Below, one piece after another: positions 5,473-61,667 of a stretch of DNA of 64,000 bases. Origin of the DNA: a virus; IMG/VR virus record IMGVR_UViG_3300026512_000003, positions 1-64,000 of that record. One strand, 5' to 3'. The notes under the pieces are model-generated. The model saw nothing but the letters and a program-made list of their open reading frames with translations. It was not told the DNA's origin and searched no databases. Every line of letters begins with the position of its first letter. Position 1 is the stretch's first letter. The translations under genes and the position numbers were made by a program.

Positions 5473-7254
5473 ATGGCATCAACTTTCAGTGGAAAGCTTT
5501 ACGATAGAAAATTCATGACAAGATATAATCAGCTAAGTAGTGTGTATGCTGATATCTTACCAAATGATATTCGTGAAGCAATTCAGTGGTCACAATTCAT
5601 TATTGCGAATGTGCCAAAAGCAGCTACTGCATTAGATAAGCTGTCATCGGTAGCAATTACATCTTTACAATACCAAACTTCAGACTTAACAGAGGCATCG
5701 GGAGTAGATGCTAAGTCTTGGAAGAATATTATGGAAGATAAATTAGAAATAGAAGAAAAAGTTAAAGAAATTGGGTTTAACTTTCTTCTCAATGGGAACT
5801 CATTTACATCAGTATATTTTCCTATACAAAGAAGTATGAGATGCTTAAAGTGTAAGCAGTCATCTTCTCAAATACATTTTGATGGAAAGATAACACTTAA
5901 GCCATCAATAGAACGACTTGAAACAGAGAAGAATAAAAAAAAGAAAGAAATGCTTGTGTTTAAAGGTATTTGCCCACATTGTAAAACAAGTAGCATGTTT
6001 AAAGCAGAAGACATTGTTATAAAAGATGTTAGCCGAATCAACATAGTGTCTTGGCCCGTATTTAATATGAGTTTTATTGAAGATACAGTAACAGGAAGAG
6101 CTACTTATTACTACAAGATGCCAAAATCAGAGGAAAAGCTGATAAAAGATGGCTATAACGATATGATATTTCACCAACCATTAGATATTATTGAAGCTGC
6201 TGTTCGTGGGACATCTGTTAAGTTTGATAATAACAAGATACTACACACAAGACGAAAGAAGATGAATGGGACAAACTCTAAATGGGGTATGCCTCTTCTT
6301 TTATCTGCTATCCCTGAAATGATTTCACTTTTACTTCTTAGAAAAGGGAATGAGCGTATATTGTCGGATATGATATTTCCTCTTAGGGGTGTTACTCCTC
6401 GTTCTACTGGTGCTGACGGTCAAGCAATGTATAATTTTATTAGTGGAACAGAGTTTTCTGCGAAAATTGAGAAGTTACTTCTTAGTCATAAAACAAATCC
6501 AACAAGTATTAAATACTTCCCTATACCGATAGACCCAGTAACGGCATTTGGAGAAGGAAAGAGCCTTAATTTATCAGGTGAGATAGATGAGCTAACCACA
6601 ATGATTATGACATCTATAGGGGTCCCTATAGAATTTGTTACAGGTGGACTTGGATACAGTGCTGCGGGAGCTTCAATTAGAATACTTGAAAACCAATTAA
6701 CAGACTTGTCTGGGACAATGGAAAATATAGCTAATTTTGTTGCACAGCAGGTAGCATCGTATATAGGAAAAGAACCTGTTCGCATCAAGTTTGTTCCAAT
6801 TAAACTTGTTGATGATATGACAGAAAAACAATTGCTTCTTAGTCTTTATCAAAATCAAAAAATCTCTGATCATACGATTGCGTCAATGTTTAAATTGGAT
6901 GCTAAGACAGAGAGCGATAGACTTGTTGAAGAGAGTAAAACTAGTGCTCGTGGACAAATGGAAATTCAATCTTATCAACAAGAGCTTAATCAAGACCTCG
7001 AAGAGAAAGCAAAACAAGAAGCAATGCTTTCTCAAAGCTCTACAGAACAAGTTAATCAACAAGCGATTATGCAAGAAGCTGATCAAATGGCTCAACAACT
7101 TGCTCAAATGGAAGCTGGACAAAGACGCTCTGAAATGGATAGATTGCAAAAAGATAATTGGCTATTGTATGTTGCTACTAAAGAGCGTATGGAATTTAAT
7201 GGTCGCAAGGATGCAACAGCAGCAGCACAGCAAGCACAACAGGAACAGCAATAA
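5473..7254 (+). CDS. Portal protein with Zn-ribbon insertion and Gln-rich C-terminus
   Basis: 593 aa; portal-like landmarks (IGFNFLLNGNSF, KILHTR...WGMPLL, IMTSIGVPIEFV, ISDHTI); CLKC...CPHC insertion. Confidence 0.75.
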   Translation: MASTFSGKLYDRKFMTRYNQLSSVYADILPNDIREAIQWSQFIIANVPKAATALDKLSSVAITSLQYQTSDLTEASGVDAKSWKNIMEDKLEIEEKVKEIGFNFLLNGNSFTSVYFPIQRSMRCLKCKQSSSQIHFDGKITLKPSIERLETEKNKKKKEMLVFKGICPHCKTSSMFKAEDIVIKDVSRINIVSWPVFNMSFIEDTVTGRATYYYKMPKSEEKLIKDGYNDMIFHQPLDIIEAAVRGTSVKFDNNKILHTRRKKMNGTNSKWGMPLLLSAIPEMISLLLLRKGNERILSDMIFPLRGVTPRSTGADGQAMYNFISGTEFSAKIEKLLLSHKTNPTSIKYFPIPIDPVTAFGEGKSLNLSGEIDELTTMIMTSIGVPIEFVTGGLGYSAAGASIRILENQLTDLSGTMENIANFVAQQVASYIGKEPVRIKFVPIKLVDDMTEKQLLLSLYQNQKISDHTIASMFKLDAKTESDRLVEESKTSARGQMEIQSYQQELNQDLEEKAKQEAMLSQSSTEQVNQQAIMQEADQMAQQLAQMEAGQRRSEMDRLQKDNWLLYVATKERMEFNGRKDATAAAQQAQQEQQ

Positions 7255-16643: not shown

Positions 16644-18071
16644 ATGCAAATTAAGATTAATTGTCATGTAGAGATGTCAGATATTACTGAAGCAGAAGCG
16701 TTAACGAAAGCTACTGAAAAAGTGGAAAGTTATGATGCTCTAGTCGAAGAAATAGCTGGAGAAGAACTGGTTACCAAGCTATACTATATAGTACCTAAAC
16801 TTGGAAAAATATTGGTTGTTGTTTCAGAAGAAGATAGAGTTATATTGGGTGTAGATAGCACAGTTCTTGCAAATACTTTGATCTCTGAATATCCTCTAGA
16901 GAAGCTTCCTTCACAGGTTGTTGCTTATCGTGAGCTTATCATTAAAGTTGGAAACGAAATAGATATGGATTCAATTATGAATGCAGCTCAATTTATTGCA
17001 GACGATACTGCATCAAAAGTTATGCCAGCTAGAATGCCTGTTGTTAAAGTGATCAACTATAACAATACCGATGAGTCTGTTTTGGTTGTTCCTAGTGTTT
17101 TTGGAGGTAATGTTTTTTCTAGTGTATCTGGTATTGTAAACAGTGGTGATGCAGAGGCAGGAAATGAAGTTATTGCTAGTTCAGGTATTATTGCTATTAC
17201 TTGTCCTACTGATGGTAGTGTAGTTGCAGGAGATACTTATAACGGTTATTTAGTTGTAGATGGAGATACTTTAAAAACTATGATTAGCAATGGTGATGAT
17301 GTAACGAATGTTTGTACTTCTTTAATAACTGATATGCGTGAGATTGCAAAAAATGTAGAAGACTTCAATCAAGATATTTCTCGTTGGGATGTTAGCAATG
17401 TTACAGATATGTATGATATGTTTTTTGGTGCAAAAGCTTTCAATCAGGATATCTCAAGTTGGGATGTTGGTAATGCTACGAGTTTGAGTTTTATGTTTTC
17501 TAATGCATCAGCTTTCAACCAAGATATCTCAAATTGGGATGTTTCTAATGTTACAGATATGGCTGGTGTATTTTCTGGTGCATCAGCTTTCAATCAAGAT
17601 ATCTCAAGTTGGAATATTGGTAATGCTACGAGTTTGAGATATATGTTTCATAATGCAAAAGCTTTCGACCAGGATATTTCAAACTGGGATGTTTCTAATG
17701 TTACGCGTATAGAAGATATGTTTTCTGGTGCAAAAGCTTTCAATCAAGATATCTCAAGCTGGGATGTTGGTAATGCTACGCAAATGCAAAATATGTTTTC
17801 TGGTGCATCAGTTTTCAACCAGGATATCTCAAGTTGGGATGTTAGTAATGTTACAAATATGAATGAGATGTTTAATAATGCATCAGCTTTCAACCAAGAT
17901 ATTTCAAGCTGGAATGTTGGTAATGTTACGCGTATGGAAAAGATGTTTAATAATGCATCAGCTTTCGACCAGGATATTTCAAGCTGGGATGTCAGCAATG
18001 TTACAAGGTCAACTTACTTTGCGCTTAGTTCTCCTATAGATGGAACAAGCAAAGAACCAAACTTTTCATAA
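16644..18071 (+). CDS. Paralogue B: shared N-terminal domain plus DUF285/BspA-like (PARCEL) repeats
   Basis: Nine 25-aa repeats F[ND]QDISxW[DN][VI]xN[VA]T...MF, preceded by the cap NVCTSLITDM. Confidence 0.85.
   Translation: MQIKINCHVEMSDITEAEALTKATEKVESYDALVEEIAGEELVTKLYYIVPKLGKILVVVSEEDRVILGVDSTVLANTLISEYPLEKLPSQVVAYRELIIKVGNEIDMDSIMNAAQFIADDTASKVMPARMPVVKVINYNNTDESVLVVPSVFGGNVFSSVSGIVNSGDAEAGNEVIASSGIIAITCPTDGSVVAGDTYNGYLVVDGDTLKTMISNGDDVTNVCTSLITDMREIAKNVEDFNQDISRWDVSNVTDMYDMFFGAKAFNQDISSWDVGNATSLSFMFSNASAFNQDISNWDVSNVTDMAGVFSGASAFNQDISSWNIGNATSLRYMFHNAKAFDQDISNWDVSNVTRIEDMFSGAKAFNQDISSWDVGNATQMQNMFSGASVFNQDISSWDVSNVTNMNEMFNNASAFNQDISSWNVGNVTRMEKMFNNASAFDQDISSWDVSNVTRSTYFALSSPIDGTSKEPNFS
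17364..18038 (+). repeat. 75-bp coding tandem repeat (9 copies)
   Basis: Recurrent TTCAAYCARGATATYTCAAGYTGGGATGTT at 75-nt period. Confidence 0.9.
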
Positions 18072-20277: not shown

Positions 20278-23200
20278 ATGACTAAGTTAGACAGAACTCC
20301 TGATAAAATGAATGAAGCATTAAAAGACACAGTACTTAATACTTATGAAGGTAGAGAAGTAAAGGGAAAACATAAGACTCTTGTCTATAGTAATGTTCAC
20401 GCTACACCTACAGATAATGGTTATTCTTCAACAAAAAAAGCAGTAGACACAAAAGCCACTCTTTCTCAAAAATTTAAAGCTGATCTAACATTAAAAAGTT
20501 CTCTAGATGGACGAGTTCTCGAACATAAAAAAGGTGTGTTTATTGGTGATATTCCTATTTATTCTAAGAAAGGTGGTTTTGTAGTAGATGGGAACACCTA
20601 TAATATTCCTACCCAAATACGATTAAAACCATCAGCGTATACATCAGAAAAAGCCAATGGTGATGTAGAAACAATGATGAATTTAAAGAACGGGAAGGGA
20701 ATGAAACTTATTTCCCCTCAAGATAAAAATAAAATTGAATTAAAAATAGGGACTAAACAGTTTAATCCACTTGATGTTGCATATGCAATGGGAGCTAATG
20801 AAAAAGAAGCAAAGAAAGTTTTAGGTGACAAAGTTTTTGGTTTGTTACAATCAACATCTTCTCCTCATGAGTCAACTTTAAAATTAGCAACAGCATTAGG
20901 TATTTCTGAGCCAAACAACAATACTCCAATAAGCGAAGTAAAGGCTCAAATTAAAGATTACTTTCAAAAAACACAAATAGATCCACAAGCAACAAAAGAA
21001 ACTCTTGGTATGCCATTTTCTTCAATGAATCATTTAGCAATGCTTCGTTCTATTAAGAAAAATATAGGTGTGAAAACGGGGTATGAAAAACAGGACGATA
21101 AAGAAAATCTAATGTTTAAGAATATTATATCTCCAGAAAAATTAATTGGTGAGGGAGTTAATAAAAGACTAGCTCAGAGTGAAGCCAAAATGAAAAGTGG
21201 ACTCAATAATGCTTTTGCAAAAAATACAATAGGTGAAATAGTTACTGAACCTACTTTGAAAAAAGCAGCAAAGAGTTTTCTTACCACTAGTGCCATTTCA
21301 AGAATGCCTGAGGAATACAATCCTCTTCAAATGCTTCAAGGTAGTAATGATGTCACACCTTTGGGTGAAGGTGGAATTAGCGATACAAGAATGATTAATC
21401 AGAATGTAAGATCTTTACATATGTCTCAGTTGGGTTTTATAGATCCAATAAAGTCTCCAGAAGGTGCAAATACTGGAGTTACTTTAAGTCTAACACATGG
21501 TGCTCATGTTGATAGTCATGGAAATGCTGCAATTGAAGTTATAAATAACAAAACAGGAAAAAAAGAGATAAAAACTGTAGGAGATCTTTGGAATAAAAAA
21601 ATAGCTTTTCCTGATGTAAAAAAAGATGGATCAGTAGGAATGAGACATAAAGATAAAATTATTGTTGGCAACATAAGAAATGCTGACTATACTCTTGCTC
21701 ACTCCGAAAAGACATTTGGACCTGCTATGAATTCTTTAGGGGTTATAAGTTCAAACGATCCAACGAGAAATCTTATGGCATCGAAACACTCAACTCAAGC
21801 GTTGCCTTTAGTAAATGGGGATTATACTTCTGTGTCATTAGAGGGCGAAAACGGAAAAAGTATGTCTGAAAATCTTGCAAAAAGGCATTTACCACTTGCT
21901 GATATAAACGGTAAAATAACAAATGTAGATTCTAAGAATGGGTTTATTCATATTTCAAACGAAAATGGTGAACATAGCAAGATAGAGTATGCTAAAGATA
22001 AGATTCAATTAAACACGAAAACATACCTTCAACACACTCCTGTTGTAAAAGTTGGTGATACTGTAAAAAAAGGACAACATCTTGCAGATTCTAACTTTAC
22101 AAAAGATGGAAAGCTTGCTCTTGGTAAAAATTTAAGAACATCATGGATGGTGTATCCTGGAACAAGAAATGATGCTTTTATTTTATCAGAAAGTGGGGCA
22201 AAAAAACTTACTTCAGTACATTCTAAAAAATTTGATATTTCGACAAAAGAAGGCACTATTTATGATAAGAAAAAATTTGCAGCTCTTTTTCCAGAAGTAG
22301 CTCAAAAGATAGATATTCATAAATATGATGACAAAGGTTTGTTAAAAAAAGGAATGACTGTGTCTAAGGATGAACCAATATCCTTAGGCTTTAGAAAGAT
22401 GGATAGTGAGGAAGTAAAATTTGCCAATGATAAAGTAAAAAAGCTTATGTATGGCGGAATGGCCCCTGTTATCCAGAGATGGAAGGGTGACGATGTTGGA
22501 ACAATAAAAGAGATTGTTACAAAAGGGGCAAATACTAGAGTTGTATCGGAATATACTTCACCTATGAAGGTTGGTGACAAGCTAGCGGGAAGAAGTGGGA
22601 ATAAGGGTATTGTTTCGGCTATTCTTCCAGAAAAAGATATGCCTCGCGATGAAGAGGGAAATCATATAGAACTTCTCATGGGTGGAGCAGGAGTTACTTC
22701 GAGACAGAATCCGGCACAAATAATAGAGGCTTCGCTTACGGAAACAGCATTGAAAACAGGGAAAAACTATGTGTTACCTCATAACCCTGATGTGGATATG
22801 GATGTTTTTGCTAAACAGGAGGCAAAGAAAAATAATGTAAAATTGTATCATAAAATGTATGATCCACTTAGAAAAAAACATCTAGGGAAAGATGTATTTG
22901 TTGCAAATTACAATGTAATGAAATTATTTAAACAAGGTGATGCAACATATTCTGCAATTGGTCATGGTGGAGTTGGGGCAGATAATCAACCAAAAAAAGG
23001 TGGAAAAGAATCTCCTTCTACAATCTCAAACATGGAAATATCAGCACTGTTAGCACATGATGCAAAAGATTTCTTGAAAGAATCTTATAGTATTAGATCT
23101 CAGCACAATAAAGACTGGTTTAGAGCTTTTGAAGCGGGAGAGTCATTACCAGCTCCTGAATTAAAAACAGGAAAAGAGAATTTTCATAAAATGCTGTCTC

Positions 23201-24513
23201 AACTAAGAGTAAAGACTGTTAGTGATAAAAATCATATGCATTTATTGCCTATGACAGATAGAGATGTAACAAAAGTAAGTACAGGTGCTGTAACTGAGCC
23301 TTATGGGCTTAAGAGGAATACTATGACACCTGTGAAGGGTGGTTTTTATGATACTAAACTATTTGGTGGTACAGGAACGGGTGTTGCTCATATAGACCTT
23401 GGGACAAAAGTGGTCAACCCTTTGTATAAAGGTACTGTTGCTTCTCTATTAGGCACATCTGAAAAAAATTTAGATGCTAGAATTTCTAACGAGGGAGTAA
23501 ATGGAATTTATTCAGAAGTTGGAAACATAAAACCAAAAAACAAGATTAAAGAACTAAAATCAGAAATTTCAAGAACAAAAGATAATGGAAAAATAAATAG
23601 ATTGTTTAGCACTATCAAAGCAATAAGAAAAACAGATGAAAATACAAAAGATATAAGAGATGCTATGTTTATGTCCAAGGTTCCTGTACTTTCTACAGCA
23701 CTTAGACCTGTGCAGAAATTACCTTCAGGAAGCATTGTAGAACATGATATAAATATGCATTATGCAAATATAATTAGAAGTAGTAATATTCTAAAGGAGG
23801 CTAAGAAAGAAAAAGCACCAATTCATATTCAGAATCACCTTCAAGATGAGCTTCAAAAACATGTTGGTGCAATGTATGGAACAAATGAAAGCCCTGACCC
23901 AAAAATGAAAGATAAAGATGTAAAAAGTGTTATGAATATTTTAGCAGGTGATAACCCAAAAACTTCATACTGGCATCAAAAAGTAATGAGACAACAAGTG
24001 TTTGGTTCTGGTAGAGCAGTAATCCTTCCAAAAATAAAATCACTAGGAATGGATGAAATAGAGATTCCAAAATATGTAGCTTGGAAAATGTTTGAACCTC
24101 ATGTGACAAGAAAAATGTCTCAAATGGGTATTGACTCTAATACATCAAAAGATATGATAGAGAAAAAGAGTGATACAGCTAACGCTGTGTTACATCAAGT
24201 GATGAAAGAGGTTCCTGTTGTGATAAATAGAGCTCCTTCTCTTCACAAGCATAATATGACAGGACACTATGCGAAAATAAGTGCAGGTAATGCTATGCAT
24301 ATATCTCCTATTATCGAAAATGCTCAAAATGCAGACTACGATGGGGATCAAATGGGTATTCATATTCCTTTTACCCATGCAGCAATAAAAGATGTAAAAG
24401 ATAAGCTTATGGCATCAAAACAAATAATGACGAATTCAAATAAAAATAAAGTTATAATGGGGATAGATTTGGACCCGTTTATAGGATTTTATGAAGGTAG
24501 TAGAAAGAAGTAG
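20278..24513 (+). CDS. Phage DNA-directed RNA polymerase, beta subunit fused to the N-terminal half of beta'
   Basis: beta motifs LGEGG, GFIDPIKSPEGANTG, NDPTRNLMASKHSTQALPL, GKLALGKNL, VGDKLAGRSGNKG, SRQNPAQ, QPKKGG..MEISAL; beta' motifs GFYDTKLFG, AHIDL, VPVL...RP, SGRAVI, INRAPSLH, NADYDGDQM (24328-24348). Confidence 0.95.
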   Translation: MTKLDRTPDKMNEALKDTVLNTYEGREVKGKHKTLVYSNVHATPTDNGYSSTKKAVDTKATLSQKFKADLTLKSSLDGRVLEHKKGVFIGDIPIYSKKGGFVVDGNTYNIPTQIRLKPSAYTSEKANGDVETMMNLKNGKGMKLISPQDKNKIELKIGTKQFNPLDVAYAMGANEKEAKKVLGDKVFGLLQSTSSPHESTLKLATALGISEPNNNTPISEVKAQIKDYFQKTQIDPQATKETLGMPFSSMNHLAMLRSIKKNIGVKTGYEKQDDKENLMFKNIISPEKLIGEGVNKRLAQSEAKMKSGLNNAFAKNTIGEIVTEPTLKKAAKSFLTTSAISRMPEEYNPLQMLQGSNDVTPLGEGGISDTRMINQNVRSLHMSQLGFIDPIKSPEGANTGVTLSLTHGAHVDSHGNAAIEVINNKTGKKEIKTVGDLWNKKIAFPDVKKDGSVGMRHKDKIIVGNIRNADYTLAHSEKTFGPAMNSLGVISSNDPTRNLMASKHSTQALPLVNGDYTSVSLEGENGKSMSENLAKRHLPLADINGKITNVDSKNGFIHISNENGEHSKIEYAKDKIQLNTKTYLQHTPVVKVGDTVKKGQHLADSNFTKDGKLALGKNLRTSWMVYPGTRNDAFILSESGAKKLTSVHSKKFDISTKEGTIYDKKKFAALFPEVAQKIDIHKYDDKGLLKKGMTVSKDEPISLGFRKMDSEEVKFANDKVKKLMYGGMAPVIQRWKGDDVGTIKEIVTKGANTRVVSEYTSPMKVGDKLAGRSGNKGIVSAILPEKDMPRDEEGNHIELLMGGAGVTSRQNPAQIIEASLTETALKTGKNYVLPHNPDVDMDVFAKQEAKKNNVKLYHKMYDPLRKKHLGKDVFVANYNVMKLFKQGDATYSAIGHGGVGADNQPKKGGKESPSTISNMEISALLAHDAKDFLKESYSIRSQHNKDWFRAFEAGESLPAPELKTGKENFHKMLSQLRVKTVSDKNHMHLLPMTDRDVTKVSTGAVTEPYGLKRNTMTPVKGGFYDTKLFGGTGTGVAHIDLGTKVVNPLYKGTVASLLGTSEKNLDARISNEGVNGIYSEVGNIKPKNKIKELKSEISRTKDNGKINRLFSTIKAIRKTDENTKDIRDAMFMSKVPVLSTALRPVQKLPSGSIVEHDINMHYANIIRSSNILKEAKKEKAPIHIQNHLQDELQKHVGAMYGTNESPDPKMKDKDVKSVMNILAGDNPKTSYWHQKVMRQQVFGSGRAVILPKIKSLGMDEIEIPKYVAWKMFEPHVTRKMSQMGIDSNTSKDMIEKKSDTANAVLHQVMKEVPVVINRAPSLHKHNMTGHYAKISAGNAMHISPIIENAQNADYDGDQMGIHIPFTHAAIKDVKDKLMASKQIMTNSNKNKVIMGIDLDPFIGFYEGSRKK

Positions 24514-54386: not shown

Positions 54387-55997
54387 ATGAAAACAAACCC
54401 TAGAGTTTCAAAATTTATGTTAGACTACGCTTTTATTGACGGAAGAAAGCTTGATTTTGAAAAATATGAAGCATTTAAGCTTCCTTACGAGGTTGATGAG
54501 AGGCAGGTTTTGCTTACAGCAGGAAGACAGGTTGGTAAGACAGTTTATCTAGCTGGAAAACTTGCTGTGAAATCTGTTTTAAAAAAAGGTTCGAGAGCGT
54601 TATATGTTGCACCATTGGAGTCTCAGACAAAGACCTTCTCAAAAACAAAACTTCAGAAAATAATAGATGATACAAAACAGTTAAAAGCAGCATATACTGG
54701 AAAAGGTACACAAAATGATGTGTTCTTTAAGCAAAACATTTTAGGAAGCTATATCGAGCTTACTTATGCTTCTGTCACAGGGATGGACCCTGTCAGGGTT
54801 AGGGGTAAGTCTGCAGATGATTTATTTATAGATGAAGCACAAGATATTGATTATGACATTTTGCCAGCAATACAAGAAGTTACAACATCTGCGGAAGACC
54901 CAACTGTGACATATGCCGGTACAGCAAAAAGCCTTGATAATACAACAGGAGTAATCTGGGATTTGTCTACAAAATTGGAAAGAATGGTTTATTGTAAACA
55001 TTGTGGACATTGGAATATTTTAGACAGAAGAAACATATCAAAAGAAGGTCTTGTCTGCAATAGAATGAAATGTCGAAGACCTATTTCTGTTAGGGATGCA
55101 AAATGGATGATTACGGGTGATAAGCACGCTACATATCAAGCTTTCAGAATACCTCAAATTTGTCTTCCAATGCATACTGAATCGAAAAGTCATTGGAATT
55201 CTGTATGGAACAAATATGTAGATTATCCTCCAGAGATTTTTAATCAAGAAATACTGGGAATTCCAAGTGGAGCAGGAGATAGACTCTTAAATCTTGAAAA
55301 ACTAAAAGCTCTTTGCACAGGTGGAAGAATGACAGTGTATCCAGATGAAGGTTTTTTCCAAAAATATCATGGTCTTTTCATGGGGATAGACTGGACAGGT
55401 GACGGAGTTCTTCTTAAATCAAGAACTGTTGCTACTGTGATTGGCCATAGAAAAGATGGAAAGCTTGAATTGGTATGGGGGAAAATCTTTCCACCAGGAA
55501 GCGTTAATGAGCAGCCTAAAGAGCTTATTAAAATTGCTAACCTTTTTAGATGCTCTGTTGTAGGAGCCGATGCTGGTATGGGTATGATGCAAAATGGGGA
55601 AATAACTCAAGCATTAGGAATAAGTAGGTTTAGAGCTATACAATATATTGCGGGGAATACTCCTTTTACTTTTGACTTTGAAAACAATACTATTAAATTG
55701 AACAAAACCCAAGCAATTGATACAGTTATGATGTTGTTCTTAAAAAAGTTTAAACCTAAAAATTTTGGGGGATCTGCAAGAAATTACTCTGGTCATGGGG
55801 TATTAGAGATTGTATTTCCAGAATATGATGATATGAGACTTTTTATACAAGATATCTTAGCTGAATTTGAACAGGAAACTGCAAAACACACTAAAATATG
55901 GACTCATAGCAACATGAAGCCCGACGATACTCTTCATGCAATAGTTTTTGGTTTTTATGCATATATGCATCATCGTAATACTGTGAGCTTTTACTAG
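54387..55997 (+). CDS. terL: Terminase large subunit
   Basis: Walker A GRQVGKT, Walker B LFIDEAQD, motif III AGTA, Zn ribbon CKHC..CNRMKC, RNase H-like MGIDW...PDDTLHA. Confidence 0.92.
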   Translation: MKTNPRVSKFMLDYAFIDGRKLDFEKYEAFKLPYEVDERQVLLTAGRQVGKTVYLAGKLAVKSVLKKGSRALYVAPLESQTKTFSKTKLQKIIDDTKQLKAAYTGKGTQNDVFFKQNILGSYIELTYASVTGMDPVRVRGKSADDLFIDEAQDIDYDILPAIQEVTTSAEDPTVTYAGTAKSLDNTTGVIWDLSTKLERMVYCKHCGHWNILDRRNISKEGLVCNRMKCRRPISVRDAKWMITGDKHATYQAFRIPQICLPMHTESKSHWNSVWNKYVDYPPEIFNQEILGIPSGAGDRLLNLEKLKALCTGGRMTVYPDEGFFQKYHGLFMGIDWTGDGVLLKSRTVATVIGHRKDGKLELVWGKIFPPGSVNEQPKELIKIANLFRCSVVGADAGMGMMQNGEITQALGISRFRAIQYIAGNTPFTFDFENNTIKLNKTQAIDTVMMLFLKKFKPKNFGGSARNYSGHGVLEIVFPEYDDMRLFIQDILAEFEQETAKHTKIWTHSNMKPDDTLHAIVFGFYAYMHHRNTVSFY

Positions 55998-56040
55998 GAA
56001 GGCAAAAACAGGGTTTTTTATTGCTTTTGAGGATTTTTTA

Positions 56041-56049
56041 TGATACTAT
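56041..56049 (+). promoter_or_regulatory. Extended -10 promoter-like (TGATACTAT) of the capsid operon
   Basis: Three T-tracts at about 10-bp spacing upstream; 32 nt before ATG 56082. Confidence 0.55.
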
Positions 56050-56081
56050 TTGAATTGATAATAATCTAGACAGGAGAGAAG

Positions 56082-56384
56082 ATGACTAGTAGACAAGAGG
56101 TAGCATTATCGTTAAGACAAGCTGCAGCACAAATCAAAGATCTTTCACAAGTGAATGTAGAATTGGAAGCTAAAAATAAAGAGTTATTGATAAAAGTAGC
56201 TTCGATGGAAAATAAAGAAGATCAACCTGCATTGCAGAAAGAAGCAGGTAGTTTTTCATTCAATGAAAGATCTGGATTTGGTCAAGTTGATGAAGGGCTC
56301 CCCGTGATAGGGACAAACTTAACAGCTGAACAGCGATTAGAAATGATCTTGAATGGCGAAAGTCCTTCTGACTATTTAGATTAA
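56082..56384 (+). CDS. Scaffold-like coiled-coil protein
   Basis: Upstream of capsid genes; LIKVAS and LQKEAG motifs. Confidence 0.55.
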   Translation: MTSRQEVALSLRQAAAQIKDLSQVNVELEAKNKELLIKVASMENKEDQPALQKEAGSFSFNERSGFGQVDEGLPVIGTNLTAEQRLEMILNGESPSDYLD

Positions 56385-56404
56385 TATAAAAATAAGGAGA
56401 ACCT

Positions 56405-56836
56405 ATGGGTTACGCAACAGATAAAGTATTTGGTAGAAGAGAAACGGTACATATTGTATCTCCAGATTTCTTAGCATTACCAAAAATGGAAATAGATTTA
56501 GGAGCAGACACAGTTATTAAAGCTGGTCAATTTGTAGGGGTTGATGGAAAGTTAGCTACATTAACTGACACAGCCAAAGCAGTGTATTTAGTAACAGAAG
56601 GATCTCACTACGAAGATATGCTTAAAAGACCTAAGCCTTCAAAAGTTATAGAAGGATTTTTTGGTGAAATGCTTGTTCATACAAAAGTATTTAACGAAGC
56701 TGGGACAGTTTTTGCAATAGGTGACAAAATTTCAGTAGCAGAGGGAGTAATTGTGCATAAAAATGACACAAACACCATAGCTATTGGCGAAGTAGTTAAA
56801 AGAGGCGATGATTGGATCGCGGTAGTTTTAGGTTAG
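56405..56836 (+). CDS. Capsid decoration/cement-like protein
   Basis: Directly upstream of the MCP; beta-rich IKAGQFV...FAIGDKISVAEG...AIGEV, beta-tulip-like. Confidence 0.55.
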   Translation: MGYATDKVFGRRETVHIVSPDFLALPKMEIDLGADTVIKAGQFVGVDGKLATLTDTAKAVYLVTEGSHYEDMLKRPKPSKVIEGFFGEMLVHTKVFNEAGTVFAIGDKISVAEGVIVHKNDTNTIAIGEVVKRGDDWIAVVLG

Positions 56837-56848
56837 TAAGGAGTAAAT

Positions 56849-57826
56849 ATGCAACCAGCAGTATCAACAACAGTTAGTTCAAACCAATTTGTTTCAAGAT
56901 TATTCGATGACGAAGGTTTTGTAAAAGAAGCAGCAGATGCTCTATCACTTTTTATCCAAGATAAAATTCGTGAAAAAGGATTTGCTCGTAAAATAGTTAA
57001 ACCTACTCCTGTTTCAGCAAAAGATTTAGTGCCTACAGAGCATACTGATCAACCTGCAATCATGGTAGAAAGAGATGTGGATGCTCGTGCAATGACAGTT
57101 CCTCTTCGTGGTCGTGGTGAATTCAGATATCATGAAACAGACAGATATATGGTTTATTTTGAAAAAGTTGTTTCTGAAAAAATTAGAAAATCAAAAATGG
57201 AAATGATGACAGTTAAAACTGATTATAAAAAACTTTTCCAAGATAGAATTTCTGAAGCAATGTACGAAGTAGAAGACTTAACAGTTATGGGTGGTGTAAA
57301 AAGTGCTCTTGCTAATGAGGAAGCTGCATATAAAGAAGCAAATGGTGGTGATTTAGCTTCTCAAGGAAATAAAACTTTCTCAGCTCAGACAGTTTACTTT
57401 GGAGAAGGTGAAACATTAGACAAATCGAATCTAGTATTCCTATTCCAACTTCCAACAAGAAATAGAATTAGTAATAAAACAGTTCTATTAACAGAAACAC
57501 TTCTACAAGAGTTAATGCATATGACTATGCAAGAAGTCGGTGATAGTGTTGTTTCTAAATTCTGGCAAGATGGTGTTGATAATATTTCAGAGTTCTGGAA
57601 TAAACAAGTAGTAACAACAATTAAATCACACATCATTAAAAATAATGAAATCTACACATTTGCTTCTCCAGAGATGTATGGACATTTCTTTATCTTACAA
57701 GACCACACTTCGTATTTCGAAATTGATCGAGACATGATGACTATGGATAGTGAAGCATATATTGCTCATGCAATTGGAAACACTAAAGGTGTTTACAAAG
57801 GTGTGTTTACAGATATCGCTGAATAG
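56849..57826 (+). CDS. Major capsid protein (HK97 fold, predicted)
   Basis: 325 aa; strong AAGGAG RBS and biased codons; IREKGFARKI, long helix ending YEVED, C-terminal HAIGNTKGV; followed by a terminator. Confidence 0.75.
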   Translation: MQPAVSTTVSSNQFVSRLFDDEGFVKEAADALSLFIQDKIREKGFARKIVKPTPVSAKDLVPTEHTDQPAIMVERDVDARAMTVPLRGRGEFRYHETDRYMVYFEKVVSEKIRKSKMEMMTVKTDYKKLFQDRISEAMYEVEDLTVMGGVKSALANEEAAYKEANGGDLASQGNKTFSAQTVYFGEGETLDKSNLVFLFQLPTRNRISNKTVLLTETLLQELMHMTMQEVGDSVVSKFWQDGVDNISEFWNKQVVTTIKSHIIKNNEIYTFASPEMYGHFFILQDHTSYFEIDRDMMTMDSEAYIAHAIGNTKGVYKGVFTDIAE

Positions 57827-58114: not shown

Positions 58115-58146
58115 GAAAAAAAGGGGTAAGTATTCCCCTTCTTTTC
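58115..58146 (+). terminator. Rho-independent terminator (possibly bidirectional)
   Basis: A-run, AAGGGG-N8-CCCCTT, CTTTT. Confidence 0.7.
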
Positions 58147-58184: not shown

Positions 58185-58292
58185 ATGCCAGAAGAACTCG
58201 CCATAGTTATCAAAGAAGAAGTAAAAAAACAAGTGCTAATGTTTCTGTTGACTCATTATTTAAAAAGACTTGCGGAGGGCCAGAGATGTTAA
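58185..58292 (+). CDS. Possible 35-aa peptide
   Basis: AAGGA RBS; MPEELAIVIKEEVKKQVLMFLLTHYLKRLAEGQRC*, overlapping the next start. Confidence 0.35.
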   Translation: MPEELAIVIKEEVKKQVLMFLLTHYLKRLAEGQRC

Positions 58293-59260
58293 TAGATATT
58301 GTAAATGATTTAGGGCAAAAAGTTTTAATGGAAAAAGTTGCTAGTTCTGAAGATGTAAAAGGAAGATTGGCTCGTATTTCTAATTTAACTATTCCAGAGC
58401 GAGATTCTTTAACTAAAGAGGCTTTTGCGTGGCCAGAGGAAAAGCTGTTTCCTATTCATACACCTGAACAAGCATTAGTAAGTAGTGCTTACCTATCTTC
58501 TAATCCTGATGTGCCAAGCTTCGTTAAAACAGCTTGTGAAGAAGCGTGCCAACTATGGGGATATGATGTAACAATAGAACCTTTTATAAAAGAAGCTGCT
58601 GCAAAAGAAGTTCCTGAAGATATTTTTCTGCTTCCAATACAAAGAAAATTGCCTGTGGTAGACAGAGAAAGTTTTATTCGCTCAAAAGGTATTCTAGAGA
58701 AACATGCAAGCGACCTAAGTATAGGTGATACTGTTCTTGCATATAGACAACTTACAAAAAGAGCTTCTGCATTAGGAGAGACTGTCAATGAAAAAGAATC
58801 CATTTTAGGTCTTTATGGTGGAATAAAAAAAGACAGTGCTTGTGAGCAACTTAGGCTAAGGTCTTTAGAAACTGGTGATGAGAGATATGAAAAAATTGCA
58901 AGCAGTATTCAGTTAAACTTACTTACGAACCCTACTGATATTTCAAATTTTATTTTTGATGTTTCTGAAATAGATGAAGATAATAATTTCGTAAAAACTG
59001 CGTCAGAAACAATTCTTGATTTTATTGATCCAACTATACCACAAGAAGATGTATTTACTGTAGGCGATAAGTGCTTTTCTCTTGAAAAAGTTGCTAGTCT
59101 TCAGCCGAATGATTTAATAGAAATATTCAGTGAGACAGATCTTGAAAGTTTGTATCTTACTGGTAATTTGGATATAATGTCTTTACAAAAATTTGCTGAA
59201 GAGTCTCCTTCAGAAGTGCAAGAGCTTCTAGGTGATTTTATTCAAGAAAAAATACAATAG
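58286..59260 (+). CDS. KxA-repeat protein (putative prohead core/scaffold) with two DUF6582-like motifs
   Basis: Ten hydrophobic-x-K-x-A motifs; FAWPEEKLFPI and FLLPIQRKLPV. Confidence 0.6.
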   Translation: MLIDIVNDLGQKVLMEKVASSEDVKGRLARISNLTIPERDSLTKEAFAWPEEKLFPIHTPEQALVSSAYLSSNPDVPSFVKTACEEACQLWGYDVTIEPFIKEAAAKEVPEDIFLLPIQRKLPVVDRESFIRSKGILEKHASDLSIGDTVLAYRQLTKRASALGETVNEKESILGLYGGIKKDSACEQLRLRSLETGDERYEKIASSIQLNLLTNPTDISNFIFDVSEIDEDNNFVKTASETILDFIDPTIPQEDVFTVGDKCFSLEKVASLQPNDLIEIFSETDLESLYLTGNLDIMSLQKFAEESPSEVQELLGDFIQEKIQ

Positions 59261-59269
59261 GAGTTTATC

Positions 59270-59533
59270 ATGTCAGTAATGATGGATTATAGATCGGGTC
59301 AGCAACATTCAATTTCTCCATTCTATGGAGCTGGAACAGCACATATGATTGATGTCATTCATAGGAATGAAGGTAAGGTGATTAGTGCTCAAGGATTGGT
59401 GGAAGATATTTCATCAGTAGATAATGAAAACGACGGTAATAAAATAGTTAGAAGTGCATCTGTTCAAGGAATTAGTGGGTACACTAAATACCAAGGAAGT
59501 GTAGAGATGGTAGAAATACCTCTTGAAAACTAA
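59270..59533 (+). CDS. Hypothetical protein
   Basis: AGGAG RBS. Confidence 0.65.
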   Translation: MSVMMDYRSGQQHSISPFYGAGTAHMIDVIHRNEGKVISAQGLVEDISSVDNENDGNKIVRSASVQGISGYTKYQGSVEMVEIPLEN

Positions 59534-59547
59534 TAAAGGAATGAAAA

Positions 59548-59859
59548 ATGGCAACTGTACCATCAAATGAACCAGCATTAAATACAGAAGGTTTTTCATC
59601 TGTATCTGGAGCAATCACATTACAAAAACAAATTCAAGCAGTTAGAAAAGCAGATCCTATTTTTGCGATAGGCGATGAGAACCTAAAGGGTTATGTTGCT
59701 TTAAAAATGTATGATCAAACAACAGCATCTGTTATTAACTCGGAAGATCTTGACCCAACAGACTTCGACTTATTTAGAGGAGAAAGTTACGCAAGTGGCC
59801 AACCATATGTAACAAACGAGGCAACTTGGGCTAGTGGTGGAGACCTTGCAGACTTATAA
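59548..59859 (+). CDS. Hypothetical protein
   Basis: AAGGA RBS. Confidence 0.65.
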   Translation: MATVPSNEPALNTEGFSSVSGAITLQKQIQAVRKADPIFAIGDENLKGYVALKMYDQTTASVINSEDLDPTDFDLFRGESYASGQPYVTNEATWASGGDLADL

Positions 59860-60454
59860 TAGCGATGGCACTATAGAACACTTTAAGAAAAAATTCTCTT
59901 CTTCTTTACCACCCTCTGAGCTTGAATATCTTTTGTTCAAGGGGTTTAATAATGCAAAAGCTACTTTTGACGCTTCAAAAGGGGCAGGATTTGCAACCCA
60001 TTTATCTAATCATTTACAAAGACTTTACAGGGACGCAGAGTCAACAAAAAGCTCATTAAAGACAAGCGAGGGTTCTTTATTAAAAGACAATAAAGTTCTC
60101 CGTGCGAAAGATGAACTATATATGCGTTTTGGGACTGAGCCTTCAAATGAAGAAATCGCTAAACATTTAAAAATGCCTCTGAAGGACATTTCAAAGTCAC
60201 TACGAAATTCAGGAAGACAAAATGTTAAAGTTAAAGAGTATAAAAGCAAGCAAATACAAATAGATGTACCTACTCTTTTACCTTCAATTAAAAAAGATGA
60301 GCAAAAAATAGCAGATACAATTGCTAAAGGCATGAACCTGCAGCAAAGTCTTAAGCATACAGGTATGTCTAAGAGTGAGTTTTATCGACAGCAAGGCACA
60401 TTTAAAGATAAGCTTAGGCAATCATACTTACGAACAGCCGAAAGGGAGAGTTAA
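59834..60454 (+). CDS. Sigma70-family RNA polymerase sigma factor (regions 2-4; start uncertain)
   Basis: Region 2 FDASKGAGFATHL (cf. FDPxRGxKFSTYA); region 3 ELYMRFGTEPSNEEIAKHLKM; region 4-like HTH GMNLQQSLKHTGMSKSEFYR. Confidence 0.75.
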   Translation: MVETLQTYNSDGTIEHFKKKFSSSLPPSELEYLLFKGFNNAKATFDASKGAGFATHLSNHLQRLYRDAESTKSSLKTSEGSLLKDNKVLRAKDELYMRFGTEPSNEEIAKHLKMPLKDISKSLRNSGRQNVKVKEYKSKQIQIDVPTLLPSIKKDEQKIADTIAKGMNLQQSLKHTGMSKSEFYRQQGTFKDKLRQSYLRTAERES

Positions 60455-60913
60455 ATGATAGCAAAAGTTTTTGCCAATCCCAACTTCGGGTCAATAAAAT
60501 TACAAGAACAAGAGGATATCCTTGTTAGAATTAATGAATACTTTTATTCTATAGAAGAACTTTTTCTCTCAATCAAGAATCAGATTACATCAAAAGGATT
60601 TGTTATGGCACAAATAGAGTTAGAGCAGGCTTCAAGTTATCATGATATAATGGAAGTGTCCGAAAGAAACATAGTAAAAATTAATACTTTTTTGCAAAAT
60701 TTAGATGCAACACTTCAGGATAACTATCTTTTATCAAAAGAAATACTTCAGACAACCAAAGTTGATTATGTTAATGGTATGGGAATAGGCTCTATTTCTG
60801 TGTCAGAAAAAACTATTACTATTAATCCCAATGCAAACACGGTAGTTGTACTAAATGAAGATGGAATAACTATCGACAAAGATGGGGTAACAAAAGAAGT
60901 TTCCTATGATTAA
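60455..60913 (+). CDS. Hypothetical protein, C-terminal beta-strand repeats
   Basis: GGAG RBS; SISVSEKTITI...VVVLNEDGITI. Confidence 0.65.
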   Translation: MIAKVFANPNFGSIKLQEQEDILVRINEYFYSIEELFLSIKNQITSKGFVMAQIELEQASSYHDIMEVSERNIVKINTFLQNLDATLQDNYLLSKEILQTTKVDYVNGMGIGSISVSEKTITINPNANTVVVLNEDGITIDKDGVTKEVSYD

Positions 60914-61667
60914 AATTGGTGTAAAAAAATTAACGAATTCCAGTTTTGAAGTTGTTCTAAAAGAAGATTTTGATTATTCGGAAGTGAAAATTTATCTCAA
61001 AGTGAAGGAATTTGAAGATTTTATTCCATTTGGAAGATGTAAAACAAATGGAGAACATGAAGCTGGGTTATCATTAAAAGATGGTGTTTTTAAAATTAAT
61101 GTCACTAGTTTAATTTTTGAAGACATCTATGATAAAGTGTTTTATTTTGCCTTCTTTGATGATAGTGGTGATTTAATAGACGCTAGCGAGCATTTTAAGG
61201 TGTTTCCTGAGGTTAATAAGGCACTCAAAGGTGTTTCCAATAAACTTAGACATGATTTTGAAATATCATCTAAGTTTTCAGGTGTATTTCTTCAGCTGTA
61301 TATTCCTAATCTATTAGAAGCAAAATGTGCTAAGTGTTGGGATTATGAGTTGGAGCAAAAAATATCTTCAAAATGTGATTGCCAAGGAGAAAGATACTTT
61401 AAAGTTCCTTTCTTATCTAAAAAGACAAAAACTCAAACATCTCAGGTATTCGAAAAAAGTGGTCAAGTAACTAGAGAGGTTGTACTATTTCAGACTTATG
61501 CTAGACTTGATTTCACAAAAGGTCTTTTTATCAAAGATCCAACCAATGGTGAATATTTTGAAATACAAGACAGAACAGTTGCAAATATTGGTGGGAACAG
61601 AACCTCAACAGTTCTTCAGTTAACTACTCTAAATGCAAATGACATCAGAATAGCTAACTTAATTTAA
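60906..61667 (+). CDS. Putative neck/head-closure protein
   Basis: CAKCWD...SKCDC followed by a beta-barrel-like C-terminus (GEYFEIQD). Confidence 0.45.
   Translation: MIKIGVKKLTNSSFEVVLKEDFDYSEVKIYLKVKEFEDFIPFGRCKTNGEHEAGLSLKDGVFKINVTSLIFEDIYDKVFYFAFFDDSGDLIDASEHFKVFPEVNKALKGVSNKLRHDFEISSKFSGVFLQLYIPNLLEAKCAKCWDYELEQKISSKCDCQGERYFKVPFLSKKTKTQTSQVFEKSGQVTREVVLFQTYARLDFTKGLFIKDPTNGEYFEIQDRTVANIGGNRTSTVLQLTTLNANDIRIANLI

Follow-up and report, generated by a model that had tools for sequence, protein, structure and literature searches.

Which RNA polymerase (RNAP) does a phage sigma factor serve when the phage also encodes a polymerase of its own? The question is raised by an open reading frame (ORF) at positions 59834-60454 of a 64,000-nucleotide stretch of viral DNA, referred to here as the window, which is the first 64 kb of the linear 165,427-bp IMG/VR record IMGVR_UViG_3300026512_000003 (88% complete according to CheckV). 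This ORF encodes a sigma70-family protein with domains 2, 3 and 4, and the same genome encodes an RNAP of two chains. The sigma probably serves this phage RNAP as its specificity subunit, whether packaged or not. We lean only slightly towards the fuller proposal that it serves the phage RNAP and is also made late and packaged into the particle.

The sigma gene and its product

The protein had been described in an original prediction, made from the sequence alone, as compact, basic, Cys-free and sigma70-like, and this description is borne out: the product of 206 amino acids (aa) has an isoelectric point of 9.68, with 37 Lys and Arg against 25 Asp and Glu, contains neither Cys nor Trp and matches Pfam Sigma70_r3. 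The GTG start codon is preceded by GAGG 13 nucleotides (nt) upstream and is uncertain by a few codons only, relatives beginning 7-10 residues before a conserved T-I-x-x-F. The frame overlaps the upstream ORF 59548-59859 by 26 nt, and the ORF starting at 60455 directly abuts its stop codon. At the genome Cys frequency of 1.1%, the chance of zero Cys in one 206-aa protein is P ~0.10, and we rejected the Cys-free state of this single sigma as a sign of function; it is kept as a family-wide trait, found in 22 of 23 members.

Several comparisons place the protein in the sigma70 family. Residues 86-126 match Pfam Sigma70_r3 (PF04539) with 38.7 bits against a gathering cut-off of 25.3 (expectation value, E, 1.1e-9), and the same match is found in four other family members. 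A Sigma70_r3 match is likewise present in gp10 of Salmonella phage Arash. The match to PHROG 351 (RNA polymerase sigma factor) has E 1.2e-5, and in a phmmer search of the PDB residues 40-128 align colinearly with RpoS, SigF, RpoD, SigB, SigA and FliA over regions 2.2-3.1. The AlphaFold2 model, computed from the 26-sequence family alignment, has a mean predicted local distance difference test (pLDDT) score of 83 and consists of three helical blocks (residues ~10-72, ~79-126 and ~145-205) with a low-confidence linker. With this model as query, every one of the top 50 Foldseek matches is a sigma chain, in nearly every case taken from a holoenzyme or an initiation complex, over 203-232 aligned columns. 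VIA-align gives an overall Z of 9-10; domain 2 superimposes on domain 2 of Taq sigmaA (3ugo_A) with Z 9.2 and a root-mean-square deviation (rmsd) of 2.6 A over 70 residues, and domains 2 and 3 together superimpose on T. thermophilus sigmaA with 5.8 A over 120 residues. The gene and its domains map as follows.

59834-60454, plus strand: sigma70-family gene, GTG start, 206 aa
59861..60049, plus strand: domain 2, residues ~10-72, regions 2.1-2.4 (RpoS alignment, VIA-align, family alignment)
60068..60211, plus strand: domain 3, residues ~79-126, regions 3.0/3.1 (PF04539; helices 79-99, 105-112 and 116-126)
60212..60265, plus strand: linker at the position of region 3.2, residues ~127-144 (pLDDT 52-67)
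60266..60448, plus strand: domain 4, residues ~145-205 (family and fold alignments; conserved helix-turn-helix KHTGMSKSEFYR)

Sequence profiles do not cover all three domains. Pfam Sigma70_r2 has no match to this sigma and matches Arash gp10 at E 0.0036. Pfam r4 and r4_2 have no match to it either, so that domain 4 is supported at the level of the fold: the fold alignments extend to model residues 205-206 and to the sigma4 end of the holoenzyme sigma chains. In close relatives the helix-turn-helix of the C-terminal block reads KHTG[LM]SKSxFYR.

The best NCBIfam matches are group 3 sigmas (FliA/WhiG and SigB/F/G; E 2e-6 and 4e-6). The scores of 27.8 and 26.6 bits lie far below the subfamily cut-offs of 189.6 and 234.35 bits, and the protein thus belongs to no curated bacterial subfamily; within the known family it forms a new branch specific to phages. 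Like the group 3 sigmas, it has a sigma2-sigma3-sigma4 architecture of similar size without region 1.1. It differs from them in being phage-encoded, in tracking a phage RNAP and in having other residues in place of the Trp dyad and Tyr of region 2.3: in the RpoS alignment the melting aromatics Y430, W433 and W434 of sigma70 correspond to H56, N59 and H60 (sigma70 numbering carried over by hand from the motif FSTYATWWIRQ). The adjacent T55 of domain 2 is invariant across the family.

The phage polymerase and its co-inheritance with the sigma

The polymerase genes and the two elements to which a sigma would dock are located as follows.

20278..24513, plus strand: RNAP chain 1, beta/beta'-N fusion, 1411 aa, no Cys (Pfam Rpb2_3, Rpb2_6, Rpb1_1, Rpb1_2)
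22414..22470, plus strand: beta flap-tip helix, fusion residues 713-731, docking site of sigma domain 4 (alignment to C. difficile beta)
23746..23880, plus strand: beta' clamp helices, fusion residues 1157-1201, docking site of sigma region 2.2 (alignment to bacterial beta')
88304-90046 of the genome, outside the window, minus strand: beta'-C chain (27% identity over 523 residues to Arash gp216)

The succession of Rpb2 domains 3 and 6 and Rpb1 domains 1 and 2 identifies chain 1 as beta fused to the N-terminal half of beta'. Together with the beta'-C chain this makes a two-chain enzyme. An alpha subunit was not noted, and searching the genome with a profile of the fusion gives no further beta/beta'-N gene. 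The fusion contains no Cys, against ~16 expected at the genome frequency, so it must lack the element by which bacterial beta' binds zinc through four Cys at its N-terminus. The beta/beta'-N part of the homologs in 22 relatives has 0-4 Cys, and the beta'-C chain keeps 4. The gene is arranged differently in some relatives. Two (G015, contig L084, and G016, L088) carry beta (~1140-1160 aa) and beta'-N (370-441 aa) as separate adjacent ORFs, and in two others (G020, L038, and G008, L048) the frame is 1965 and 2096 aa long and has Cys residues clustered towards its end, suggestive of a complete beta-beta' fusion.

That the RNAP retains both docking motifs for a sigma, as originally claimed, holds: they lie at fusion residues 1157 and 717 and align to the clamp helices and the flap tip. 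The clamp-helix stretch DINMHYANIIRSSNILKEAKKEKAPIHIQNHLQDELQKHV aligns without gaps to the bacterial beta' clamp helices, and NDKVKKLMYGG in the flap tip aligns without gaps to EERLLRAIFGE of C. difficile beta, VKKLMYG corresponding to bacterial LLRAIFG. Both elements are kept in all 21 relatives that aligned. The contact residues differ. Positions R275, E295 and A302 of E. coli beta', at which mutation abolishes sigma70 binding, are S, L and H in the phage clamp helices; family-wide, the first two are replaced in every member, the first mostly by a small or hydrophobic residue and the second by Leu in the members aligned by hand, and Ala or Gly predominates at the third. In the sigma, the region 2.2 residues Q406, E407 and N409 of sigma70 are replaced by Y32, L33 and F35, and E407 is kept in most of the wider sigma family. 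Judged from these alignments, the docking scaffold is retained with contact residues unlike those of a bacterial holoenzyme, and their replacement on both sides fits a private sigma-core interface. Residue co-variation was examined in 22 pairs for both predicted contacts, region 2.2 with the clamp helices and sigma4 with the flap tip; changes occur only at subclade boundaries and thus give no evidence of coupling between sigma and RNAP.

Full-length homologs of the RNAP fusion are encoded by Arash (25% identity over 96%), by Vibrio phages D69, D148 and D181 and by at least 254 IMG/VR contigs. In an exhaustive phmmer search with the sigma, six close relatives (E 5e-38 to 6e-11) rank ahead of generic sigmas; the phage collection yields no match by tblastn or megablast with the sigma or its surrounding region, a word-based protein search gives the self-match only, and single-protein scans of viral contigs give nothing useful (contig L003 is a chance match of 27 residues). 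Co-occurrence was assessed with a profile of the sigma family on the 23 longest RNAP-bearing contigs, 19 of which contain exactly one match. The sole complete record missed by the profile (G005) has an ortholog detectable with the sigma of its nearest relative (E 1.8e-24), and the three contigs without a sigma are fragments, 56-59% complete. Absence from relatives that keep the RNAP had been named beforehand as the result that would speak against a partnership; among RNAP-bearing records at least 90% complete, 11 of 11 have a single sigma ortholog. Arash and D69 contain exactly one sigma each by the family profile, D148 and D181 each have one match to Arash gp10, and the genome studied here has only one sigma-like ORF.

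Sigma and RNAP have also diverged together. Maximum-likelihood trees of the two, built for 22 genomes, have 15 of 19 splits in common, and their Mantel correlation (r 0.91) was reached in none of 2000 permutations. This congruence, which the original prediction had proposed as a check, shows long vertical co-inheritance without replacement by host sigmas. As the sigma is present in every near-complete relative that bears the RNAP, it is most likely the promoter-recognition subunit of that polymerase. Among more distant phages with an RNAP, the family profile and Pfam r2/r4 find no sigma in YerA41, Carin-5 and RHph_TM30, and Vibrio phage 1.031.O has an ordinary r2+r4 sigma; we therefore keep the co-occurrence claim to closer relatives.

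Particle genes, particle proteomes and the proposed role of the sigma

The sigma gene lies downstream of the head module, on the same strand.

5473-7254: portal
54387-55997, plus strand: terminase large subunit (PHROG match, BLAST to Arash)
56082-56384, plus strand: scaffold-like ORF (order shared with contig L005)
56405-56836, plus strand: ORF between scaffold-like ORF and capsid gene (order shared with contig L005)
56849-57826, plus strand: major capsid protein (PHROG match, BLAST to Arash)
58286..61667, plus strand: tightly packed same-strand run holding the sigma gene, ending at a strand switch

The head-module assignments (54387..57826) derive from PHROGs 675 and 2522 and from BLAST to Arash gp1 and gp226. 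The run comprises ORFs 58286-59260, 59270-59533 and 59548-59859, the sigma gene, and ORFs 60455-60913 and 60906-61667. PHROG and Pfam return nothing for the ORFs adjoining the sigma, nor for ten further ORFs of the window. The structural neighbours of ORF 60906-61667 (Atlas) are all viral and include one cluster with T4_neck-protein in 13% of its members, a weak lead. The earlier statement that the sigma sits among capsid and neck genes is thus correct for the capsid part, with terminase and capsid genes upstream on the same strand, and is no more than this lead for the neck.

The position is conserved. Two metagenome contigs have the order terminase, scaffold-like ORF, homolog of ORF 56405, capsid, four small ORFs, sigma and homolog of ORF 60455 in common, with a capsid protein 78% identical, and in all 22 relatives checked the sigma is embedded, on the same strand, among consecutive particle genes. 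Most members of the wider family have the C-terminal end of an Arash gp8 homolog (cell-wall hydrolase and structural protein) ahead of the sigma, and in several members, including Arash, the sigma is followed by homologs of gp11-gp13, all of which are in the Arash particle proteome. Profile-profile comparison detected no kinship between the sigma neighbours of different subclades, and the particle-gene position is thus conserved in all subclades although the immediate neighbours differ. Relative to the RNAP gene the placement varies: the window sigma lies 35 kb downstream of it on the same strand, whereas in the closest relative of the window sigma (G017, L011/L089, a 97-kb fragment) the two genes are ~1.7 kb apart, on opposite strands and convergent, which reflects either a rearrangement or an assembly artefact.

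The RNAP of Arash is likewise a beta/beta'-N fusion plus beta'-C (gp206 and gp216), and its sigma gp10 (annotated as 'RNA polymerase sigma factor RpoS', OQ632216), recognisable as a homolog by BLASTP (E 8e-8) and by the family profile (E 1.8e-9), is encoded in the midst of particle genes that follow the terminase on the same strand. About 11 proteins are still BLAST-detectable between the two phages, including sigma, terminase, portal, capsid and both RNAP chains. Arash gp10 differs in its length of 234 aa, with an extra N-terminal helix region on the region 2.1 side that the 206-aa subclade does not have, and its immediate neighbours are not homologous to those of the window sigma. In Arash particles gp206 is the top-detected protein (3516 spectra, 128 unique peptides), gp216 has 40 unique peptides, and gp10 has 24 at 100% coverage, whereas the primase, the DNA ligase, the DNA helicases gp193 and gp197 and the reductase subunit gp61 have 2 each (PMC10585845). 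Normalised to length, gp10 gives 10.3 unique peptides per 100 aa, compared with 8.4 for gp206, 6.6 for gp216, 9.8 for the capsid protein and 5.5 for the portal. The Arash paper only annotates and lists gp10 (PMC10585845). A further protein of the same proteome is the helicase gp217 (L002:13262-14680), encoded directly after the beta'-C gene, with 38 unique peptides (8.1 per 100 aa, like the RNAP chains). A helicase is linked to phage RNAP genes according to a review, and gp217 may be a further polymerase accessory.

YerA41 resembles the phage studied here in having its own multisubunit RNAP (g054-056 and g162) and a sigma-annotated gene among particle genes, and differs in that its beta, beta'-N and beta'-C genes are separate. 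Its sigma-annotated g019, flanked by capsid and tail genes, is classed as late, and liquid chromatography-tandem mass spectrometry detects the product in particles together with most of the RNAP subunits (PMC7354516). We also noted, as the best candidate for a family member in this phage, that the C-terminal stretch of a 'structural protein' of this phage, YerA41_195c (L118:33934-34482, minus strand), matches region 3.0/3.1 of the family at E 0.0024 and 0.0045; it has no Pfam match and no domain 4 in the same ORF. It may be a truncated, sigma-like g019.

The mechanism we propose would operate as follows. Domain 2 of the sigma would dock on the beta' clamp helices and domain 4 on the beta flap-tip helix, giving a holoenzyme that would recognise phage promoters. 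The sigma gene would be transcribed with the late particle genes and its product loaded into the particle together with the polymerase, so that the next cell would receive, along with the DNA, an initiation-competent holoenzyme that would begin early transcription. In this phage, docking on the phage core, synthesis late in infection, loading into the particle and injection are all inferred. The idea of a virion holoenzyme, already put forward in the original prediction, gains from the co-occurrence with the RNAP and from the congruent trees; association with the virion is supported only by the published proteomes, from impure preparations, of the distant cultured phages Arash and YerA41.

Packaged polymerases, as in phiKZ/AR9 and N4, are expected to have their component genes in or with the late particle genes, and the window sigma gene has such a position. 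A precedent comes from phiKZ and AR9. The phiKZ/AR9 enzyme is a beta/beta' enzyme without alpha or omega, like the one described here, and requires a phage-encoded specificity subunit, the role we propose for the sigma. In the non-virion RNAP of phiKZ the sigma position is occupied by the structurally sigma-like embedded subunit gp68, a proposed sigma descendant (PMC8287921), and AR9 gp226 functionally acts as a sigma according to a review. Neither gp68 nor gp226 has recognisable sigma70 sequence similarity, whereas the window sigma is detectable with Pfam. Moreover, phiKZ and AR9 each encode a virion and a non-virion RNAP, both of at least four chains, whereas one beta/beta'-N copy was found here.

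The main rival explanation, to which we grant a minor but real chance, is that the protein is a late or middle sigma that redirects host RNAP, like T4 gp55 or SPO1 gp28/gp33-34, and that the phage RNAP uses another factor or none. According to reviews, sigmas encoded by phages act through the host core, and RNAP-bearing jumbo phages have no sigma and sigma-bearing ones no RNAP (PMC7598289, PMC7824862). This model rests on phages without a core of their own; the clade described here holds both RNAP and sigma, co-inherited, contrary to the two-way split of large phages, and no near-complete genome with the phage RNAP is without the sigma, across phages isolated on Salmonella and Vibrio. In favour of redirection, the protein is a conventional sigma2-sigma3-sigma4 protein nearest the group 3 sigmas, and E407 is conserved in most of its wider family. 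T4 gp55 and SPO1 gp28/gp34 are likewise small, divergent, phage-encoded members of the sigma family. T4 and SPO1 have no RNAP of their own, however, whereas this phage has the beta/beta'-N fusion and beta'-C, and neither Pfam, PHROG nor tblastn of the phage collection gives any similarity of the window sigma to the T4 gp55 or SPO1 factors. The genes of these factors are not known to be embedded in a particle-gene block, and a sigma for late genes is normally made earlier than particle proteins, whereas the gene studied here lies inside such a block and its Arash homolog is abundant in particles.

Alternatively, the sigma might belong to the phage RNAP and act only in the infected cell, for example in a late-promoter switch, its detection in particles being due to carry-over. 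We attach a small probability to this explanation. The sigma is devoid of the [LFIMY]-x-K-x-A site, a putative head-protease or cargo tag, and no packaging signal is known; many non-structural enzymes are found in the Arash proteome. Against carry-over, the unique-peptide density of Arash gp10 is like that of capsid and RNAP chains and far above that of likely contaminants, and the particle-gene position has persisted in all subclades despite differing neighbours. It is also conceivable that the sigma binds both cores, arriving with the phage enzyme and then capturing the host core, since both docking elements of the phage RNAP have bacterial homologs. With contact residues that differ on both sides and nothing specific in its favour, we regard such dual binding as very improbable.

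Some observations weigh against a dedicated, packaged partner of the phage RNAP. Any vertically inherited core gene is expected to co-occur with the others and to give congruent trees, so that partnership is not proven by either result. The record is 88% complete, and a second factor could be missing from it. TATAAT-like words are enriched in intergenic DNA, which suggests some host-type promoters and that host RNAP may also be used. The very divergent T4 gp55 nevertheless binds host beta', and divergence in region 2.2 is therefore compatible with host binding. Arash gp10 is only 27% identical to the window sigma over 102 residues, and profile searches did not place the YerA41 sigma in the window family. 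Finally, the Arash preparation, from a sucrose gradient, contained 116 proteins including replication enzymes, for which its authors offer carry-over as an explanation (PMC10585845); a list of this length indicates an impure preparation.

On balance we retain the phage RNAP as the probable partner of the sigma. A homolog had already been annotated and found in one particle proteome; what we propose as new is a canonical sigma for a virus-encoded multisubunit RNAP, carried in the particle. We found no paper describing or testing a sigma70-family subunit for a phage multisubunit RNAP. More generally, it is possible, although we hold this with less than even confidence, that the whole clade (at least 254 IMG/VR contigs, with members cultured on Salmonella and Vibrio) packages and injects a minimal holoenzyme of two catalytic chains and a sigma70-family subunit, without alpha or omega. 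If so, this would be the first sigma-dependent virus-encoded RNA polymerase and would stand, as a living intermediate, between the holoenzyme of cells and the enzymes of phiKZ/AR9, in which divergence has left the sigma-like subunit unrecognisable.

Should the sigma serve the phage core, packaged or not, it would provide a very small, alpha-less and nearly Cys-free holoenzyme of bacterial type for structural and mechanistic study as well as an example of a rewired sigma-core interface, and would support the descent of phiKZ gp68 from a sigma. Should it be packaged, the holoenzyme would add a new kind to the injected transcription machines known from N4 and phiKZ. Both points lend themselves to study in the cultured phages Arash, D69, D148 and D181.

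Promoter-like words and other features of the genome

Intergenic k-mer enrichment revealed no clear bipartite promoter motif tied to the sigma, and a consensus scan gave 35 sites against 37.6 expected. Within 58.2-61.7 kb neither an excess of sigma70-type promoters nor a plus-strand terminator was flagged. The 9-mer AGAGATAAG occurs five times in the genome, and four copies are intergenic (2682, 101056, 117643 and 142423, the first of them in the window). The intergenic copies lie 40-160 nt 5' of a gene start and are oriented toward the gene, and we regard the word as a candidate promoter element. ACATAAC and TTTGTAAAA are also enriched near AGAGATAAG, with no fixed spacing found.

The 173-nt gap that separates the capsid genes from the sigma run contains one further element.

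58115..58146, flagged on the minus strand: G+C-rich hairpin with a 12-bp stem and A and T runs on both sides

Situated ahead of the sigma run, the hairpin is a possible bidirectional terminator or attenuator, for which we infer the plus-strand reading.

Upstream of the RNAP gene, positions 16644-18071 of the window encode a 475-aa protein with three DUF285 repeats (E 6e-98), which are leucine-rich repeats of the Mycoplasma or BspA type. This protein may be a host-binding protein and may give a hint about the low-GC host.

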